This document shows positions 993-45,712 of a stretch of DNA of 64,000 nucleotides, in pieces. How positions within the stretch are numbered: position 1 is the stretch's first letter; each line of letters begins with the position of its first letter. The stretch is from Escherichia coli (lineage in GTDB: Bacteria > Pseudomonadota > Gammaproteobacteria > Enterobacterales > Enterobacteriaceae), in assembly GCF_016026235.1 (NCBI RefSeq), contig NZ_CP065613.1. One strand, given 5' to 3'. The position numbers and the translations under genes are program-made. Under the pieces are notes generated by a model. That model did not search any database. It saw only the letters and a list, made by a program, of their open reading frames with translations, and was not told where the DNA came from.

Positions 993-1973
993 TTAACGCT
1001 CCAGGGCCTCTGCCATTTCCCTCATCAATGTTGCGTCTGCATCCGATAAGTTGATATTCAGTGCCGCGACATTTTCGCGTACCTGTTGCGGTGCAGTAGC
1101 CCCACTAAGAATGGAGATTAAATCACTCTGTTTTAATATCCACGCCAGTGCCAGAGTGGGAATTGTGCACTGATAACGAGCACAAAGTGGCTGCCACTGT
1201 TCAAGCATATCAATCACTTTCAGCATGTTTTCACGCTGGAACCAGACTTTATTTGCCCGAGCGCCGCCCGGAACGTAATCACGAGTGATGGTGCCGGTCA
1301 ACAATCCCTGCTCTAGCGGGGAATAAACCTGAACCACAATGCCATTATCACGACATAGCGGCAGCAGTTCGTTTTCCATTGCCCGGTCGAGGATACTGTA
1401 TTTCGCCTGAATAATATCCAGTTCACCATATTGCAGATACTCGCGGATATGGTCGGCATCGACGTTAGCAGCGCCTATAGCGCGAATTTTCCCTTCAGCC
1501 TTTAACTCATTAAGCACTGCGACAGTTTCAGCGATCGGCGTATAAAATGGCGGCACCGACTGCCAGTGCGTCATGTAGATATCGATGTAATCAATACCCA
1601 GACGTTGCAAGCTGGCTTCTACCTCTTCGCGGATAGATTCCGGGGAAAGGTTTTTATACAACTGCCGATTGCCAACTTTGTTGAATAAACTTCCTTTTCG
1701 TTCCCAGACAATGCCGCATTTGGTTTCTACTACAACCTGTTCACGGGGCAGTTTTTTTAACGCCTGACCGACGATAACTTCACTATTGCCAAAGTTATAT
1801 CCTGGTGCAGTATCAATCAGGTTAATGCCGCAACGATGGGCTTCAAGAATCGTATCAATACATATTTGCCGATCGAGATCGCCATTCCATGCAGGACCGC
1901 CGCCAATGGCCCATGTCCCCAACCCCATTCGCGAAAGCGTAATATCCGTTGTGCCTAAAGGTATCTTTTTCAT
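993..1973 (-). CDS. ydjG: NADH-dependent aldo-keto reductase
   Basis: 326-aa ORF, aldo-keto reductase family; synteny. Confidence 0.9.
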   Translation of the reverse strand: MKKIPLGTTDITLSRMGLGTWAIGGGPAWNGDLDRQICIDTILEAHRCGINLIDTAPGYNFGNSEVIVGQALKKLPREQVVVETKCGIVWERKGSLFNKVGNRQLYKNLSPESIREEVEASLQRLGIDYIDIYMTHWQSVPPFYTPIAETVAVLNELKAEGKIRAIGAANVDADHIREYLQYGELDIIQAKYSILDRAMENELLPLCRDNGIVVQVYSPLEQGLLTGTITRDYVPGGARANKVWFQRENMLKVIDMLEQWQPLCARYQCTIPTLALAWILKQSDLISILSGATAPQQVRENVAALNINLSDADATLMREMAEALER

Positions 1974-2895
1974 TTGCCTTCATTATCCTTCGTATTCTTC
2001 CAGCAATTGTTCGACCAGCTTTCTGTTTTTTACGCCGGTGGTGGCACCGACGCTTAGAACCGAGATAGCCGCCGTTGCATTGGCAAAGCGTGCGCATTCA
2101 CGCAGATTTTTGCCTTCTAACAGTGCCGCAATAAAACCTGAAGCAAAGTTATCACCCGCGCCAATGGTGTCGATGGCGGTTATTCCTGCGACCGCCGGCA
2201 CCTTCATCGTCATGTCACCACGCTTGATAAAGCAGCCGTCTTTACCCGTTTTAATCACCACCGTTTTTACGCCGCACGCAAGAAAGCAGTCAGCAATTTC
2301 ATCCAGTGTCTCTTTCCCGGTGAGTAATTTTGCCTCGGCATAATTAGGAAACAGATAATCGACATAACTCAATGCTTCGCAAATATCATCCAGCGTTTCA
2401 TTCAACCGCGGTTTAATCATATCGGCACAGATAATCATCTGCCGGGCTTTAGCTTGCGTAAAAATTTCTGTTAGCGTTTTACCATCCAATAGTGGACTGT
2501 TGAAAATACTGGCCAGTGATAATAATTTCGCCTGGGAAAACCGAGCAAAATCAACATCGTCAATATTCAATTTCCACAGACTGCCGTTACGGTTTGTGAC
2601 AAACGTCCGCTCGCCATCCTCCGTCACCAGTCCAACATTAATAGAGGTATCTATGTTGACGTCCTGCTTCAGGCTTTGAATATCAATATTCTCTTTGCGG
2701 CAATGGTCGAGAATAAACTGCCCTGCGGCATCTTTACCAATACGGCTCATTAATGCTGTACGATGGCCCAGACGAGAAATAATTGTTGCTTCATTTATTG
2801 CATCACCCCCGGTGGTCATTGCGATTCTTTCAAGAGGATAAGAATCCACATCAAAGATATTTTTACTGACCGGTTGCAATGGAATATCAACAATA

Positions 2896-2904
2896 GCGGC
2901 ACCT
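2896..2904. repeat. IS1 target-site duplication GCGGCACCT (copy 1)
   Basis: Identical 9-mer immediately flanks both IS1 ends. Confidence 0.9.
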
Positions 2905-2919
2905 GGTAATGACTCCAAC

Positions 2920-3423
2920 TTACTGATAGTGTTTTATGTTCAGATAATGCCCGATGACCTTGTCATGCAGCTCCACCGATTTTGAGAACGACAGTGACTT
3001 CCGTCCCAGCCTTGCCAGATGTTGTCTCAGATTCAGATTATGTCGCTCAATGCGCTGAGTGTAACGCTTGCTGATAACGTGCAGCTTTCCCTTCAGGCGT
3101 GATTCATACAGCGGCCAGCCATCCGTCATCCATACCACGACCTCAAAGGCCGACAGCAGGCTCAGAAGACGCTCCAGTGTGGCCAGAGTGCGTTCACCGA
3201 AGACGTGCGCCACAACCGTCCTCCGTATCCTGTCATACGCGTAAAACAGCCAGCGCTGACGTGATTTAGCACCGACGTAGCCCCACTGTTCGTCCATTTC
3301 AGCGCAGACAATCACATCACTGCCCGGTTGTATGCGCGAGGTTACCGACTGCGGCCTGAGTTTTTTAAGTGACGTAAAACCGTGTTGAGGCCAACGCCCA
3401 TAATGCGTGCACTGGCGCGACAT
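2920..3423 (-). CDS. insB: IS1 transposase InsB' frame (made as InsAB' fusion by -1 frameshift)
   Basis: 167-aa ORF matching IS1 InsB; overlaps insA in the -1 frame. Confidence 0.9.
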
Positions 3424-3617
3424 CCGACGCCATTCATGGCCATATCAATGATTTTCTGGTGCGTACCGGGCTGAGAGGCGGTGTAAGTGAACTGTAGTTG
3501 CCATGTTTTACGGCAATGAGAGCAGAGATAGCGCTGATGTCCGGCAGTGCTTTTGCCGTTACGCACCACGCCTTCAGTAGCGGAGCAGGAAGGACATCTG
3601 ATGGAAATGGAAGCCAC
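3342..3617 (-). CDS. insA: IS1 InsA (transposition inhibitor / N-terminal part of transposase)
   Basis: 91-aa ORF with C4 zinc-finger motif CPSC...CSHC. Confidence 0.9.
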
Positions 3618-3672
3618 GCAAGCACCTTAAAATCACCATCATACACTAAATCAGTAAGTTGGCAGCATTACC

Positions 3673-3681
3673 GCGGCACCT
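3673..3681. repeat. IS1 target-site duplication GCGGCACCT (copy 2)
   Basis: Identical to 2896-2904. Confidence 0.9.
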
Positions 3682-3711
3682 ATACAAATAACGTCGAGAT
3701 TATCCATATCA

Positions 3712-4548
3712 TTATTCCGCTTTGCCATCAGAACCGAACAGTTTAATTTTTTCCAATGCCCGTTCTTTTACAGCTTTACGTACTTCACGTTCTAAATGCA
3801 GGAAAGGCTGATCCTGGTTTTCTTTCACTGCGACCATTGCGGCCTGACAGAGCTCAGTATGGATGTTGATTTTCGCGATACCCAACGAAATTGCAGTTTT
3901 AATGTCGGCATCACTGATCCCCGATGCGCCATGCAAAACCAGCGGAACAGACACGGCATCGCGTACGCGTTTGACGACCTCAAAGTTCAATTGTGGCTCT
4001 GACGTATAAACCCCATGCTGGTTGCCGATGGCGACAGCCAATGAGTCACAGCCCGTACGTTCAACAAATTCAGCCGCCTGGTCAGGATCGGTATAGTGAT
4101 AGCCCGCCAGCGCTTCCTCATAAACGGTTTCATTACCGACATGCCCTAATTCCGCCTCTACCGGAATACCCAGCGGATGGAAGAAATCGACAGCCTCTTT
4201 GGTTAAGCGAATATTTTCTTCGAAATCAAATGCGGAAGCATCACGCATTAATGAATTCATACCATGAGTCCAGGCGTTATGAATAATCTCCATACTCCGA
4301 CCATGATCCCAATGAGTTATTACCGGCACAGTTGCTTTTCGTGCCATTGATACCATCATGTGAGAGAAATCTTCAAATGAGGTGTTGCCGACAAAACCTG
4401 TGCCAAAAGAAATAATAACCGGTGATTTCGCTTCTTCGGCTGCGTCGATAACGCCCATCAACATTTCTGCATTCCATACGTTAAAATGGGCAATTGCATA
4501 ATGTTTATTTGTGGCATCGTTTTCCCAATATCTGATATCTGCGAGCAT
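3712..4548 (-). CDS. ydjI: class II aldolase (fructose-bisphosphate aldolase family)
   Basis: 278-aa ORF; synteny. Confidence 0.9.
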   Translation of the reverse strand: MLADIRYWENDATNKHYAIAHFNVWNAEMLMGVIDAAEEAKSPVIISFGTGFVGNTSFEDFSHMMVSMARKATVPVITHWDHGRSMEIIHNAWTHGMNSLMRDASAFDFEENIRLTKEAVDFFHPLGIPVEAELGHVGNETVYEEALAGYHYTDPDQAAEFVERTGCDSLAVAIGNQHGVYTSEPQLNFEVVKRVRDAVSVPLVLHGASGISDADIKTAISLGIAKINIHTELCQAAMVAVKENQDQPFLHLEREVRKAVKERALEKIKLFGSDGKAE

Positions 4549-4568: not shown

Positions 4569-5612
4569 TTAATCGCTAATTTTAATAACGCCTTTAATAA
4601 TGTCGCGTTTGTTGTTAACCGACTCTTCAAATGCCTGTTGTACATCACGGTAATCGTAAATATGTGTCACCATCGATTTCACATCGAATCGCCCTGAAGA
4701 AATAGCTTCAATCGTGACCGGATAACGATTGGCATAGCGGAATACCGTCTGGATAGTGACTTCGCGATTGATTTTGAGGAAATTGATTGCCGAATCGCCG
4801 GGTACAGTACCAACAATCATAATTTTACCGCCGCGCATTACCAGATAAGGTGCCTGTTTAACGGTGACCGCAGAACCCGCTGTTTCGAAAACAATATCTG
4901 CGCCCATGTCTTCGGTAAATTGCTGACAGCGTGCAATAGTGTCTTCTTTTGCGCCGTTAATAACCACTGTCGCACCAAGCTGTTCCGCCATTGTCAGACG
5001 TTTTTCCAGCACATCAACGACGGCAATTTCCGTTGCTCCCAGGCATTTGCACGCTTGCAACGTCATCAAACCAATACAACCCGCTCCTAGAATAATTATC
5101 TTCTTACCCGGTTTAACATCTGCCAGCATCGCGGCATGCATCCCGACTGCGGCAGGCTCCACCAGCGCCCCTTCCATCGTGTCCATATTGTCGGGCAGTT
5201 TGTAAGTAAAGCTCTCCGGATGACACAGATAGTGCGTTAATGCGCCGCGGTAGTTGGGTTGTGTCGCCATAAAATCAACGTCCGGGCAGATGTTATATTT
5301 GCCTTCCAGACAGTAACGACAGTGACCGCAAGGAACGCCAGGTTCGATATTTACCCGATCCCCCGGTTTAAATTTGCGCACGCGGCTTCCCACAGCCACA
5401 ACCGTCCCGGCGCATTCATGACCCTGGCCAATTTCTTGATTTGGGTCTTTAGGCGGAATAAACGGACCTGATTCAAAACCATGTACATCTGAACCACAAA
5501 TACCGACATATTCTACTTTAATCAAAACTTCATCTTCTTTAGGCACTGGTATTTCTGCTGAAATAATTTTCATTGTGCCCGGCACCTGCAATATTGCTTT
5601 TGAATTTTTCAT
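4569..5612 (-). CDS. ydjJ: Zn-dependent alcohol/sugar dehydrogenase
   Basis: 347-aa ORF; MDR family with GHE and Cys-rich structural zinc motif. Confidence 0.9.
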   Translation of the reverse strand: MKNSKAILQVPGTMKIISAEIPVPKEDEVLIKVEYVGICGSDVHGFESGPFIPPKDPNQEIGQGHECAGTVVAVGSRVRKFKPGDRVNIEPGVPCGHCRYCLEGKYNICPDVDFMATQPNYRGALTHYLCHPESFTYKLPDNMDTMEGALVEPAAVGMHAAMLADVKPGKKIIILGAGCIGLMTLQACKCLGATEIAVVDVLEKRLTMAEQLGATVVINGAKEDTIARCQQFTEDMGADIVFETAGSAVTVKQAPYLVMRGGKIMIVGTVPGDSAINFLKINREVTIQTVFRYANRYPVTIEAISSGRFDVKSMVTHIYDYRDVQQAFEESVNNKRDIIKGVIKISD

Positions 5613-5628
5613 TTTGAATCCACCCGTA

Positions 5629-7008
5629 TTATTTATTGGCTACTGCATCAATACTTAAACTTTCAACGGAGACACCTTTGGTTTCGATTCCAATGGTGGC
5701 GATAGCAATTGCGACAATAATTGAAACCGCCCCCAGAAGAATAAAGACTCCCGTAACGCCATAACTACTGAGCAGCACTGCAACGGCATAAGGTGCGGCA
5801 ATACCACTGATTCGCCCTACCGCATTCGCCAGACCGGAGCCACGGAGTTTGGCCTCTGTCGGCCAGATCTCAGGGACATACACTGCCGAGGCATAGCAAA
5901 CGTACATATAGACGAAAGTAATCAGGAAGAAACCAATCAACGTTATGAGCAACATGCTGGTTTGCAGTGAATAGATATATCCGAGCACCGCAATCAGGAT
6001 TAATAGCCCCACACCCATTGTTTTACGCGGAATTTTATCCATCACCAGCATGGCAATAAAAATGCCAAATGGCGCGCCAAACATACTCATGGTATTTAAA
6101 ACAATCGAGTCTTTTAAATTAATCCCCTGGGTCATGAATATCGTTGGCAACCAGTTAATTAGTGTGTACTGCACAACGTTCATGGCAATCAGCACACAAG
6201 AGCCTAATATCACGCGTTTCAGTAATACTCCTGTCAGTAAGGCTGAATACGGCACCGCTTGTGGCGTTTTACCGTCATCAGCAATAACCACGGGCGGCAA
6301 AGGTTTGCCCGTCTGGTGTATGACGCCTTCTTCTATACTCCGCATGACTTTCTCGGCTTCCTGATACCGTCCGCGCGATTCCAGCCAGCGCGGGGATTCA
6401 GGAAAGTAGCGCCAGGCCAGCGCCGTAGCGATAAGCGACAATATTGCAGGGATAAGCAGTTGTACCCGCCAGTTCCACTCTGCACTAATCAGCGGCGTGA
6501 GTCCCATCGCTATCAATGAACAGAGCGGATATGACCAGTTGCCAATAAAGGAAACCCGACTTGACCACGTTCCACGATTTCTACCGGGCATATATTCGGT
6601 GAAACCAGCAAACAGCGTAACCAGTAAAGCTCCCAGCCCAACTCCCATCACAAAACGGCAGGCAATAAGGAAATCCATATTCGGTGAGAAAGCACCGACA
6701 ACCATCGAGGCAATATGAATGGCCTCATAGAGGATGAACGCATTTCTGCGACCGGTTTTGTCGCCAATGATGCCGCCCACCAGCGCACCGAGAAACATTC
6801 CGGCGGTCGTGATTGCTGAGAATGTGGCTGTGGTGGAATTATCTGTCCAGCCCAACGCTTTCAGCTGCGCGAGGATCAAGCCACCAACGGCATTACTCCA
6901 GCAGACAAGCAAGCCAAACGCGACGATGGCAAACATTGACGAATGCCAGCGGCAATCCGGTAAGCGATCCAGCCGTGCACCACAATGCGGTTTTGTTATC
7001 TGTTCCAT
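5629..7008 (-). CDS. ydjK: MFS sugar transporter
   Basis: 459-aa polytopic membrane ORF; synteny. Confidence 0.9.
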   Translation of the reverse strand: MEQITKPHCGARLDRLPDCRWHSSMFAIVAFGLLVCWSNAVGGLILAQLKALGWTDNSTTATFSAITTAGMFLGALVGGIIGDKTGRRNAFILYEAIHIASMVVGAFSPNMDFLIACRFVMGVGLGALLVTLFAGFTEYMPGRNRGTWSSRVSFIGNWSYPLCSLIAMGLTPLISAEWNWRVQLLIPAILSLIATALAWRYFPESPRWLESRGRYQEAEKVMRSIEEGVIHQTGKPLPPVVIADDGKTPQAVPYSALLTGVLLKRVILGSCVLIAMNVVQYTLINWLPTIFMTQGINLKDSIVLNTMSMFGAPFGIFIAMLVMDKIPRKTMGVGLLILIAVLGYIYSLQTSMLLITLIGFFLITFVYMYVCYASAVYVPEIWPTEAKLRGSGLANAVGRISGIAAPYAVAVLLSSYGVTGVFILLGAVSIIVAIAIATIGIETKGVSVESLSIDAVANK

Positions 7009-7034: not shown

Positions 7035-8111
7035 TTATTCATCAAAGTCGTAAGTCATGATCACTTTGATTGCGGTTTTATCGACCATCGCATCAAACCC
7101 TTCGCGCCATTGCGACAGGCCGATACGATGCGTGATCATCGGTTTGACTTTGATAGCGCCGCTGACTAATAGCCTGATAGCGTTACGCCATGAGGTGGAG
7201 TCATAGGCCATATGCCCAATGATGCTTTTGTTCCAGGCGGTAATGTCATTAATCGAGAAATCAAGAGGTTTGAAGCCCATTCCAACGCGTACCACTTCCC
7301 CGTTCGGGCGGAGCATTTCGATGGCTTGTTTCAGTGCGATATTGGCACCGGAGCATTCAATCACCAGTCCCAGATTGTCTTTTCCACAAATTTGCTGGCA
7401 GCGCGCCACCACATCTTCGGTAGAACCATTTACTACTGCCGTCGCACCCAGTTCTTTTGCAACCGGGAAGCGGACCGCCACATCTTCTTGCAGACCAACG
7501 ACGACGATATTTACCGCCCCCATAATTCGCGCCATTTGTACGGAGAACAGCCCGAGTGGGCCAGTGCCGATGACGACCACATCCTGACCAGGAAGGAATT
7601 TCGATTGCTGCGCGATGGATTTGTAGGCATTACAGATAGGGTCAAGTACGGCTGCGTCCTCATAATCAACACCATCAGGGATTTCCCACAACGCATGACG
7701 ATGAATTTTGAGAATTTCACCAGGAACCAGACAATATTTGGAAAAACCACCGCCCCAGGTATTATTATCCAGACCAAGGTTTACTTTTTCTGTACAACAC
7801 AGAAAATCACCTTGTTCACAGGCCGGACAAACGCCGCAAACGTGACCGCTGTTATCCGATACGACGCGTTGCCCCACTTTCCAGTCTTTGACTTTTTCAC
7901 CAACCTGCGCAATACAACCTGCGAACTCATGGCCGCGGATAGAGTTAAACTCATCAGAACCGCTATCGACATTGTAGTGCTTCATGTCTGCGCCGCAGAT
8001 TGCCGCGGCTTTAATTTCAATCACTACATCTTCCGGGCCACACATGGGTTGTGGGACATCAATCATCTTGTAGCCGCCAAAGGCTTTGCCAAACCGAGCC
8101 AGTGCTTTCAT
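7035..8111 (-). CDS. ydjL: Zn-dependent dehydrogenase
   Basis: 358-aa MDR-family ORF; first gene of the ydjLKJIHG cluster. Confidence 0.9.
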   Translation of the reverse strand: MKALARFGKAFGGYKMIDVPQPMCGPEDVVIEIKAAAICGADMKHYNVDSGSDEFNSIRGHEFAGCIAQVGEKVKDWKVGQRVVSDNSGHVCGVCPACEQGDFLCCTEKVNLGLDNNTWGGGFSKYCLVPGEILKIHRHALWEIPDGVDYEDAAVLDPICNAYKSIAQQSKFLPGQDVVVIGTGPLGLFSVQMARIMGAVNIVVVGLQEDVAVRFPVAKELGATAVVNGSTEDVVARCQQICGKDNLGLVIECSGANIALKQAIEMLRPNGEVVRVGMGFKPLDFSINDITAWNKSIIGHMAYDSTSWRNAIRLLVSGAIKVKPMITHRIGLSQWREGFDAMVDKTAIKVIMTYDFDE

Positions 8112-22358: not shown

Positions 22359-22454
22359 TTTGTCCGAATTTAGCGATAATTTGTCATTTTAGCTTGATTC
22401 AACATAACAATAAAAACGGTAAGGTACAGCCTCGTTTGTAACAATGAGAAGCAT

Positions 22455-40718: not shown

Positions 40719-41113
40719 GCTTTATCGAAGCAAAATAAGTCAGACGATAATTTATCGATAATACTGGTCGGTTTTACATAAATCGACCAGAGAATAAGAT
40801 ATTACTGTTGATGCTTCTGCTAATTCATTATTTATATTTATAATTTCAATTTTATCTATAAAACTAACTATATAAATAAACATAAACATGCCGTTGTGTT
40901 CGCCCTTTGATTAGCAACTCTGGTTTTCTTTCTTAGCTGAACAATCTGGTTATAGCGTGCGGACTGACCGTTAATTTTCTCCATCTTACTGGATAACACA
41001 CCATGAACTGCTACTTTTAAAACACCTGAATGTCAACAGGTTAACTCGTGCCATATCGGGTGATGCTGCCAACTTACTGATTTAGTGTATGATGGTGTTT
41101 TTGAGGTGCTCCA

Positions 41114-41389
41114 GTGGCTTCTGTTTCTATCAGCTGTCCCTCCTGTTCAGCTACTGACGGGGTGGTGCGTAACGGCAAAAGCACCGCCGGACATCAGCGC
41201 TATCTCTGCTCTCACTGCCGTAAAACATGGCAACTGCAGTTCACTTACACCGCTTCTCAACCCGGTACGCACCAGAAAATCATTGATATGGCCATGAATG
41301 GCGTTGGATGCCGAGCAACTGCCCGCATTATGGGCGTTGGCCTCAACACGATTTTACGTCACTTAAAAAACTCAGGCCGCAGTCGGTAA
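41114..41389 (+). CDS. insA: IS1 InsA
   Basis: 91-aa ORF; differs from the 3342-3617 copy at 5 residues. Confidence 0.9.
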
Positions 41390-41811
41390 CCTCGCGCATA
41401 CAGCCGGGCAGTGACGTCATCGTCTGCGCGGAAATGGACGAACAGTGGGGCTATGTCGGGGCTAAATCGCGCCAGCGCTGGCTGTTTTACGCGTATGACA
41501 GTCTCCGGAAGACGGTTGTTGCGCACGTATTCGGTGAACGCACTATGGCGACGCTGGGGCGTCTTATGAGCCTGCTGTCACCCTTTGACGTGGTGATATG
41601 GATGACGGATGGCTGGCCGCTGTATGAATCCCGCCTGAAGGGAAAGCTGCACGTAATCAGCAAGCGATATACGCAGCGAATTGAGCGGCATAACCTGAAT
41701 CTGAGGCAGCACCTGGCACGGCTGGGACGGAAGTCGCTGTCGTTCTCAAAATCGGTGGAGCTGCATGACAAAGTCATCGGGCATTATCTGAACATAAAAC
41801 ACTATCAATAA
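41308..41811 (+). CDS. insB: IS1 transposase InsB' frame
   Basis: 167-aa ORF overlapping insA in the -1 frame. Confidence 0.9.
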
Positions 41812-41837
41812 GTTGGAGTCATTACCGGATTAGTGTG

Positions 41838-45582: not shown

Positions 45583-45712
45583 TACTTCTTACTCGCCCAT
45601 CTGCAACGGATGGGCGAATTTATCCCCGCTTTCTCGTCTGCTGTAATATTCCCCACTACACTTCCACTGTTGCGTCAGGCGTTTGTCGCCATACGCTTAC
45701 AGGGTGGCCCGC

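Follow-up and report, generated by a model that had tools for sequence, protein, structure and literature searches.

An IS1 insertion in ydjH of Escherichia coli lies at a recurrent natural target of the element

Introduction

Insertion sequences interrupt bacterial genes, and for a gene interrupted in this way it can be asked whether the insertion is a single accident, what is left of the gene and of the genes behind it, and why the element entered at that particular nucleotide. The E. coli gene ydjH, which encodes a sugar kinase of the PfkB family, raises all three questions. Its product and YdjI favour long-chain uronate-type sugars in vitro, as stated in a passage of PMC9602453 that cites Huddleston and Raushel 2019. 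In the 64,000-nucleotide stretch of E. coli DNA analysed here (the window), ydjH is interrupted close to its 5' end by a copy of IS1. The interruption is not a one-off: the site is a recurrent IS1 hot spot, a property that the initial annotation of the sequence missed.

The IS1 element and its target duplication

Members of the IS1 family are about 768 bp long, have imperfect terminal inverted repeats of roughly 23 bp that begin with GGT(A/G)ATG, and usually duplicate 9 bp, rarely 8-10 bp, of the target. The element described at 2905-3672 in the initial annotation was confirmed by sequence reading and a scripted check as a complete, 768-bp IS1 on the minus strand, the direction of its insA gene being the same as that of ydjH. 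It is bounded by IRR (GGTAATGACTCCAACTTACTGAT; 2905-2927, plus strand), which adjoins the ydjH 3' fragment, and by the insA-proximal IRL (3650-3672, minus strand; GGTAATGCTGCCAACTTACTGAT on the other strand), which is overlapped by a promoter-like site, pIRL, at 3638-3665. Of 23 positions, 20 are identical between the two repeats. The insA gene (3342-3617, minus strand) encodes a protein of 91 residues consisting of a zinc ribbon and a helix-turn-helix (Pfam Zn_ribbon_InsA and HTH_Tnp_IS1; matches to PF03811 and PF12759). The insB' frame (2920-3423, minus strand) contains the DDE_Tnp_IS1 domain (PF03400). An A6C programmed -1 frameshift motif is present at 3360-3366 on the same strand, and the modelled shift would produce a 232-residue InsAB' transposase.

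Over its 768 bp the element is 100% identical to loci annotated as 'IS1 family transposase' in many E. coli genomes and to the IS1 of the same isoform located between ydjF and ydjE in E. coli FDAARGOS_943. To the IS1A and IS1B isoforms, among them the second IS1 of the window (41059-41826), its identity is about 91%. The length, the inverted repeats, the insA/insB' organization with the A6C motif, the 9-bp duplication and the sequence identity all agree with the IS1 family. The element looks like an intact, apparently transposition-competent copy.

The 9-mer GCGGCACCT borders the element on both sides, at 2896-2904 and at 3673-3681, and a search of both strands of the 64-kb window gave no third copy. 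The target duplication is perfect, as had been reported. It corresponds to coding nucleotides 27-35 of ydjH and runs from the third base of codon 9 to the second base of codon 12, so that the earlier placement of the insertion 'near codon 11' was accurate. When IS1 and one copy of the duplication are removed, positions 1983-2904 and 3682-3707 join into an open reading frame of 948 nucleotides, 315 codons and a stop, with the start MDNLDVICIGAAIVDIPLQ; this is the restored gene predicted by the initial annotation. A comparison with K-12, which it had proposed, showed that the restored protein matches K-12 YdjH (PDB 3H49/3IN1) from end to end (E = 6e-205) with three substitutions, S92N, A152T and F196Y. 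The PfkB domain found by Pfam extends over residues 5-300 (profile positions 3-299). The K-12 match, the PfkB domain and the synteny between ydjI and ydjG all identify the gene as ydjH. The perfect duplication, the intact IS1 and the freedom of ydjH from any other lesion support the view that the insertion was a simple and probably recent one, and so do the full length of the other ydj genes and the presence of the same junction in independent assemblies.

Probable effect on the ydj cluster

The cluster is located on the minus strand in the order ydjL-K-J-I-H-G-F, with intergenic gaps of 26, 16, 20, 4, 9 and 136 bp, and ydjH does occupy the middle of ydjLKJIHG as originally described. The genes ydjL (7035-8111), ydjK (5629-7008), ydjJ (4569-5612) and ydjI (3712-4548), all on the minus strand, have the lengths of the annotated genes of other genomes and are thus full length. 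The ydjG gene (993-1973, minus strand), assigned from the list of open reading frames and from the annotation in relatives, begins 9 bp downstream of ydjH.

The ydjH gene itself is split into two parts on the minus strand. The 3' fragment (1983-2904), recognized from the sequence, the K-12 comparison and Pfam, comprises coding nucleotides 27-948 with the stop codon. According to a scripted translation, the 5' stub (3651-3707) comprises 12 native codons, six IS1-encoded codons and a stop (MDNLDVICIGAAVMLPTY*), the interrupted native gene reading MDNLDVICIGAA, six residues from IS1, stop. The native frame stops after 18 codons, and an intact, expressible reading frame is therefore absent. The allele is probably null, with loss of the kinase function.

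Because the genes are so tightly spaced, IS1 would separate the ydjH remnant and ydjG from the ydjL-proximal promoter. The 9-bp distance between ydjH and ydjG and the tight packing of the operon suggest that ydjG probably depends on read-through across the element. IS1 is strongly polar according to classical work, and ydjG is probably strongly down-regulated by polarity.

Recurrent insertion at the same nucleotides

Six of 5,426 complete E. coli genomes carry IS1 at ydjH nucleotide 26/27. They were found with junction-spanning queries and a query containing the flipped IS1, and were then mapped by BLAST. In TUM1857, an IS1B-type element, 90.9% identical to the window copy, has entered at the identical nucleotide; its orientation and its duplication (nucleotides 27-35) are also those of the window copy, and the ydjH gene that it interrupts differs from that of the window at 24 sites. 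The IS1 of DSM 101139 also duplicates nucleotides 27-35 and has the opposite orientation. The remaining four have the opposite orientation as well: in EC291 the left junction is at nucleotide 27 and the far side is deleted up to ydjK; in O121 201805972 and in strain 1943 the duplication comprises nucleotides 26-34; and in AHB18 the left junction is at nucleotide 26 and the far side adjoins a mer/TEM-1 resistance region. Together with the window there are seven occupants, in two orientations and at two adjacent positions.

The AHB18 sequence (NZ_OZ546938.1, 2572-5094) has an IS1B at the hot spot next to merR, merT and TEM-1 and not next to the rest of ydjH. In this strain the ydjH hot spot is, as far as the sequence tells, the entry point or a rearrangement boundary of an IS1-bounded resistance region.

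A uniform model, calculated from 59,352 chromosomal IS1 places in the 5,426 genomes, predicts about 0.024 occupants against the six observed, a roughly 250-fold excess that is a rough figure without phylogenetic correction. The site thus has two properties of a hot spot, independent reuse of the same nucleotide and an excess over random insertion (rough and uncorrected for phylogeny). The other mapped ydjH junctions are scattered (nucleotides 2, 8, 53, 368, 390, 413/422, 436, 449, 550, 819 and 910), and 7 of about 19 mapped junctions fall on two adjacent nucleotides. Positions derived from BLAST span lengths are approximate; the junction of Res13, predicted at ydjH nucleotide 8, is actually at nucleotides 1-9 of ydjG. 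A search with the occupied-site pattern ATCAACAATAGCGGCACCT N{0,1} GGTRATG gave 0 hits among genome contigs, which represent each species once, and short-read metagenome contigs, which break at IS elements.

A second recurrent IS1 target, TGCCATCAG (3723-3731; ydjI nucleotides 818-826), is located 50 bp upstream of the ydjH site and is empty in the window. At least eight complete E. coli genomes have this site occupied; the elements are of the IS1A and IS1X2 types, and both orientations occur. The element has the same orientation in MB64 and 14EC047 and the opposite orientation in TUM9812, ET82 (IS1X2-type) and FCI56; CM188245, PD4 and 14EC017 were assigned to the site by their identical 190-bp junction spacing. 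Across the ydjI/ydjH boundary, a stretch of approximately 160 bp contains an IS1 junction in about 20-25 genomes, some of these positions being deduced from spans.

Other rearrangements were seen in the cluster. Several carriers of the second site have IS1-bounded deletions that extend into ydjI, ydjJ or ydjK. E. coli F467 (NZ_OY754409.1) has three IS1 copies in the ydj cluster, which is scrambled by an IS1-mediated inversion joining ydjJ nucleotide 708/716 to ydjH nucleotide 413/422.

Cause of the recurrence

IS1 has reused the exact nucleotide in either orientation, which favours target preference rather than selection, and target-site preference is the most likely explanation of the recurrence. 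The alternative is that loss of ydjH or of the distal ydj genes is advantageous and that IS1 is merely the commonest mutagen. The cluster is indeed often disrupted: an IS1 is present within about 1.4 kb of the ydjH site in 33 and 41 of the 5,426 genomes, counted by orientation, IS1-bounded deletions from ydjI to ydjK are common, and the prevalence of the ydj genes is described in one part of PMC9602453 as varying strongly by phylogroup. A selected knock-out, however, could be located anywhere in the 948-nucleotide gene, yet the two adjacent nucleotides account for the cluster of junctions described above, in both orientations, and the second exact site, in the last 20 nucleotides of ydjI, leaves ydjH intact. 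Selection is an unlikely explanation of the recurrence as a whole; selection for loss of the pathway could contribute to it.

Several candidate determinants of target preference were considered. The AT content around the target is 60-67%, compared with a cluster mean of 53%, and corresponds to the 76th-92nd percentile of the cluster; these values are only moderately high, other parts of the cluster being richer in AT, and AT-richness was rejected as the cause. No IHF consensus was found within one mismatch in the 100 bp on either side of the target. The likeness of the target to the IS1 ends (GGTGCCGCT compared with GGTGATGCT, seven of nine positions at the ydjH site) is at chance level. Matches of 8 of 12 positions to the IS1 ends, present at both sites, likewise do not exceed the local chance expectation, and sequences of the cluster that match better are not hot spots. 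AT-richness, an IHF site and end homology do not explain the two nucleotide-precise sites. These could mark a targeting determinant that has not been recognized, such as DNA that is bent or bound by a nucleoid protein, or else a repeated and perhaps adaptive route for switching off ydj. Either proposal is speculative and, in our judgement, doubtful.

The chimeric reading frame and the annotation of interrupted ydjH

An open reading frame of 311 codons that starts in the IS1 end was described in the initial annotation as encoding nearly the whole kinase if transcribed from IS1. The frame exists (1983-2918, minus strand): it begins with a TTG inside IRR (TTG/MESLPGAAIVDIP) and encodes MESLP followed by YdjH residues 10-315, which are kept because the duplication regenerates G10-A11-A12. 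The condition that it be transcribed is an important one. The PfkB match of the chimera begins at profile position 12, so that positions 3-11, the start of the domain and its first strand, are gone, and signals for transcription and translation are missing. A consensus scan for sigma-70-like sites predicted no outward promoter at the IRR junction and detected only the pIRL site. A hybrid promoter found by hand (TTGGAG, 17 nucleotides, TATTGT) was rejected: it matches at 7 of 12 positions and its transcript would start downstream of the TTG. The sequence preceding the TTG (...CACTATCAGTAAG) contains no Shine-Dalgarno motif.

It might still be argued that IS1 supplies the expression signals and that the chimera is a working kinase, ydjH being rewired and not lost. 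Most of the protein is retained, the TTG is located 1 nucleotide past the insB' stop codon, which makes termination-reinitiation conceivable, and RefSeq calls equivalent frames 'sugar kinase'. Besides the incomplete domain, the junction without a predicted promoter and the unassisted TTG, two further observations oppose this proposal. Translation of the insB' frame depends on a rare frameshift, and the occupants with IS1 in the opposite orientation are annotated with other, arbitrary starts (303-314 residues), which points to an annotation artefact. A functional chimera is thus very unlikely, and the frame is probably meaningless; ydjH is better regarded as lost.

Exact look-ups of the 311-residue (TTG) and 278-residue (ATG) proteins and of the intact 315-residue form of the window allele found no record. 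A PGAP-style version of 314 residues is on record as 'sugar kinase [Escherichia coli]' (WP_096985569.1/QPR12087.1) in about 10 contigs, which include a 5.07-Mb chromosome record. In RefSeq/PGAP, the IS1-cut gene is named 'ydjH: sugar kinase', with 303-314 residues and assorted starts, inside IS1 or at non-canonical codons. The pseudogene flag is missing in all six of the other occupied genomes and in WP_096985569.1 of the window clade. Under this naming dead genes can be counted as live ones, and presence/absence and genome-wide association studies of the ydj cluster may score a dead ydjH as functional.

Independence, age and lineage of the insertion

The occupied ydjH sites could in principle descend from one ancestral insertion that was spread by recombination and diversified by gene conversion among IS1 isoforms. 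The window and TUM1857 have no SNPs between them in the 144 bp beside the element, and O121 201805972 and strain 1943, the only two occupants with a common flank background, carry different IS1 isoforms. Gene conversion, however, can neither turn an element round nor shift the duplication by 1 bp. The occupants are also divergent: their IS1 copies differ pairwise by 0-70 nucleotides in 768 and represent four or more isoforms, and their 1.4-kb flanks differ by 1-41 nucleotides; with the pair O121 201805972 and 1943 set aside, the figures are 7-70 nucleotides for the elements and 11-41 for the flanks. A single origin is extremely improbable. The pattern points to at least six independent events, six or seven being most parsimonious, and even the most cautious count gives three.

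That the insertion in the window is an assembly artefact, the possibility by which the initial annotation thought it could be refuted, has a negligible probability and was excluded, given that the target duplication is perfect and that the identical junction is found in three independent draft assemblies as well as in the 5.07-Mb chromosome record. Over 3.0-3.1 kb, from a point within IS1 across the ydjH remnant and ydjG and on through ydjF, the drafts (GCA_001907385.1, GCA_002467115.1 and GCA_050054195.1) show 100% identity to the window, and their contigs end in IS1. The exact occupied allele of the window is present in none of the 5,426 complete E. coli genomes of the collection. The closest complete genome for the flanks is FDAARGOS_943, with 99.93-99.97% identity across the window; its ydjH site is empty and its intact gene is 2 nucleotides from the restored window ydjH. 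Since secondary decay is absent and the site of the nearest relative is empty, the insertion is, on the sequence comparison, a real and recent one that is fixed in a small clade.

In this region the window and FDAARGOS_943 differ almost only in IS content, as is typical of an IS-active lineage. FDAARGOS_943 has its elements, the ydjF-ydjE IS1, the ydjK IS1A and, near nimR, an IS66-family element, at sites that correspond to positions 81-89, 5765-5773 and 22387-22394 of the window, all of which are empty.

The second IS1 of the window, at 41059-41826, belongs to a different isoform, with 67 mismatches to the ydjH copy and two to the ydjK IS1A of FDAARGOS_943. No target duplication flanks it, and it stands in place of about 488 bp of the FDAARGOS_943 sequence, yoaC among them, an arrangement that resembles an adjacent deletion associated with IS1. 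A 1.5-kb IS110-family element (approximately 47306-48840) is located between pdeD (45683-47311) and yoaE (48834-50390). It is 99.7-99.9% identical to loci annotated as ISSso6, is not found at this position in FDAARGOS_943, and has a 378-residue transposase frame (DEDD_Tnp_IS110 and Transposase_20), an overlapping frame of 118 residues and a perfect 14-nucleotide inverted repeat (47318-47331 and 48815-48828). The strains of the E. coli collection that carry ISSso6 are mainly ones with large plasmids bearing IS600 and IS91. This distribution hints at an EIEC- or Shigella-like background, and the source clade is probably EIEC-like.

Proposed course of events

The following sequence of events is proposed. 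The InsAB' transposase of an active-looking IS1 would have made a 9-bp staggered cut at GCGGCACCT, ydjH coding nucleotides 27-35, and repair would have duplicated the 9-mer. The native ydjH frame would then end after 18 codons, and the allele would be null. Any transcript initiated at the ydjL-proximal promoter would have to traverse 768 bp of largely untranslated IS1, which would lower ydjG expression by polarity. The insertion would be recent and fixed in a small, IS-rich and probably EIEC-like E. coli clade that also carries ISSso6. The site of entry would not be a chance one: the ydjI/ydjH boundary contains two exact targets that IS1 has used repeatedly, of which this is one, most likely as a result of target-site preference. 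We hold this account as a whole, a recent IS1 jump into a preferred target with a null ydjH, polarity on ydjG and spread in a small clade, with high confidence. Within it, we infer the loss of kinase function, the polarity on ydjG and the precedence of target preference over selection as the cause of recurrence.

Comparison with known systems

IS1 ends have reportedly been found, in work of 1986, to create hybrid promoters and fusion reading frames. The ydjH junction is similar in that a frame opens inside the IS1 end and continues in phase into the target gene. Unlike those cases, no acceptable -35/-10 pair spans the junction, and no ribosome-binding site precedes the TTG.

The formation of pseudogenes by IS elements in Shigella and EIEC offers a second comparison. 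The window is likewise IS-rich, its 64 kb containing IS1 twice and ISSso6 once; over the same region its closest relative carries another four IS elements. In the window, too, a catabolic gene has been inactivated with its neighbours intact. In contrast to the Shigella/EIEC naming, the NCBI label for the source of the 314-residue product is E. coli.

Classical IS1 insertions in E. coli operons such as gal and lac, described in the literature of the 1970s and 1980s, are polar. They share with the present insertion the 768-bp element, the 9-bp duplication and the disruption of the gene, and polarity on the distal genes would be expected here as well. Mechanistically nothing is different; the target in this case is ydjH. 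Judged from its sequence, the insertion is a textbook IS1 event and, for an E. coli clade rich in IS elements, an ordinary step of genome decay.

What is new is the position, ydjH nucleotide 26/27, as a recurrent natural IS1 target. A literature search found no paper naming both ydjH and IS1 and none describing this hot spot. Together with its neighbour 50 bp away, the site is a defined chromosomal location at which the choice of exact targets by IS1 can be studied. IS1 is usually described as having a regional target preference only. Hot spots of the element were reportedly described in plasmids and in lacZ in work of 1980 and 1985, and IHF is said to have been implicated, in 1987, at the IS1 hot spot of pBR322. 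The ydjH site resembles these hot spots in the reuse of the same target nucleotides, in the use of both orientations and in its location in a somewhat AT-rich stretch. It differs from them in having only moderate AT-richness and no IHF consensus nearby, and in being a natural, chromosomal site that is used across wild lineages.
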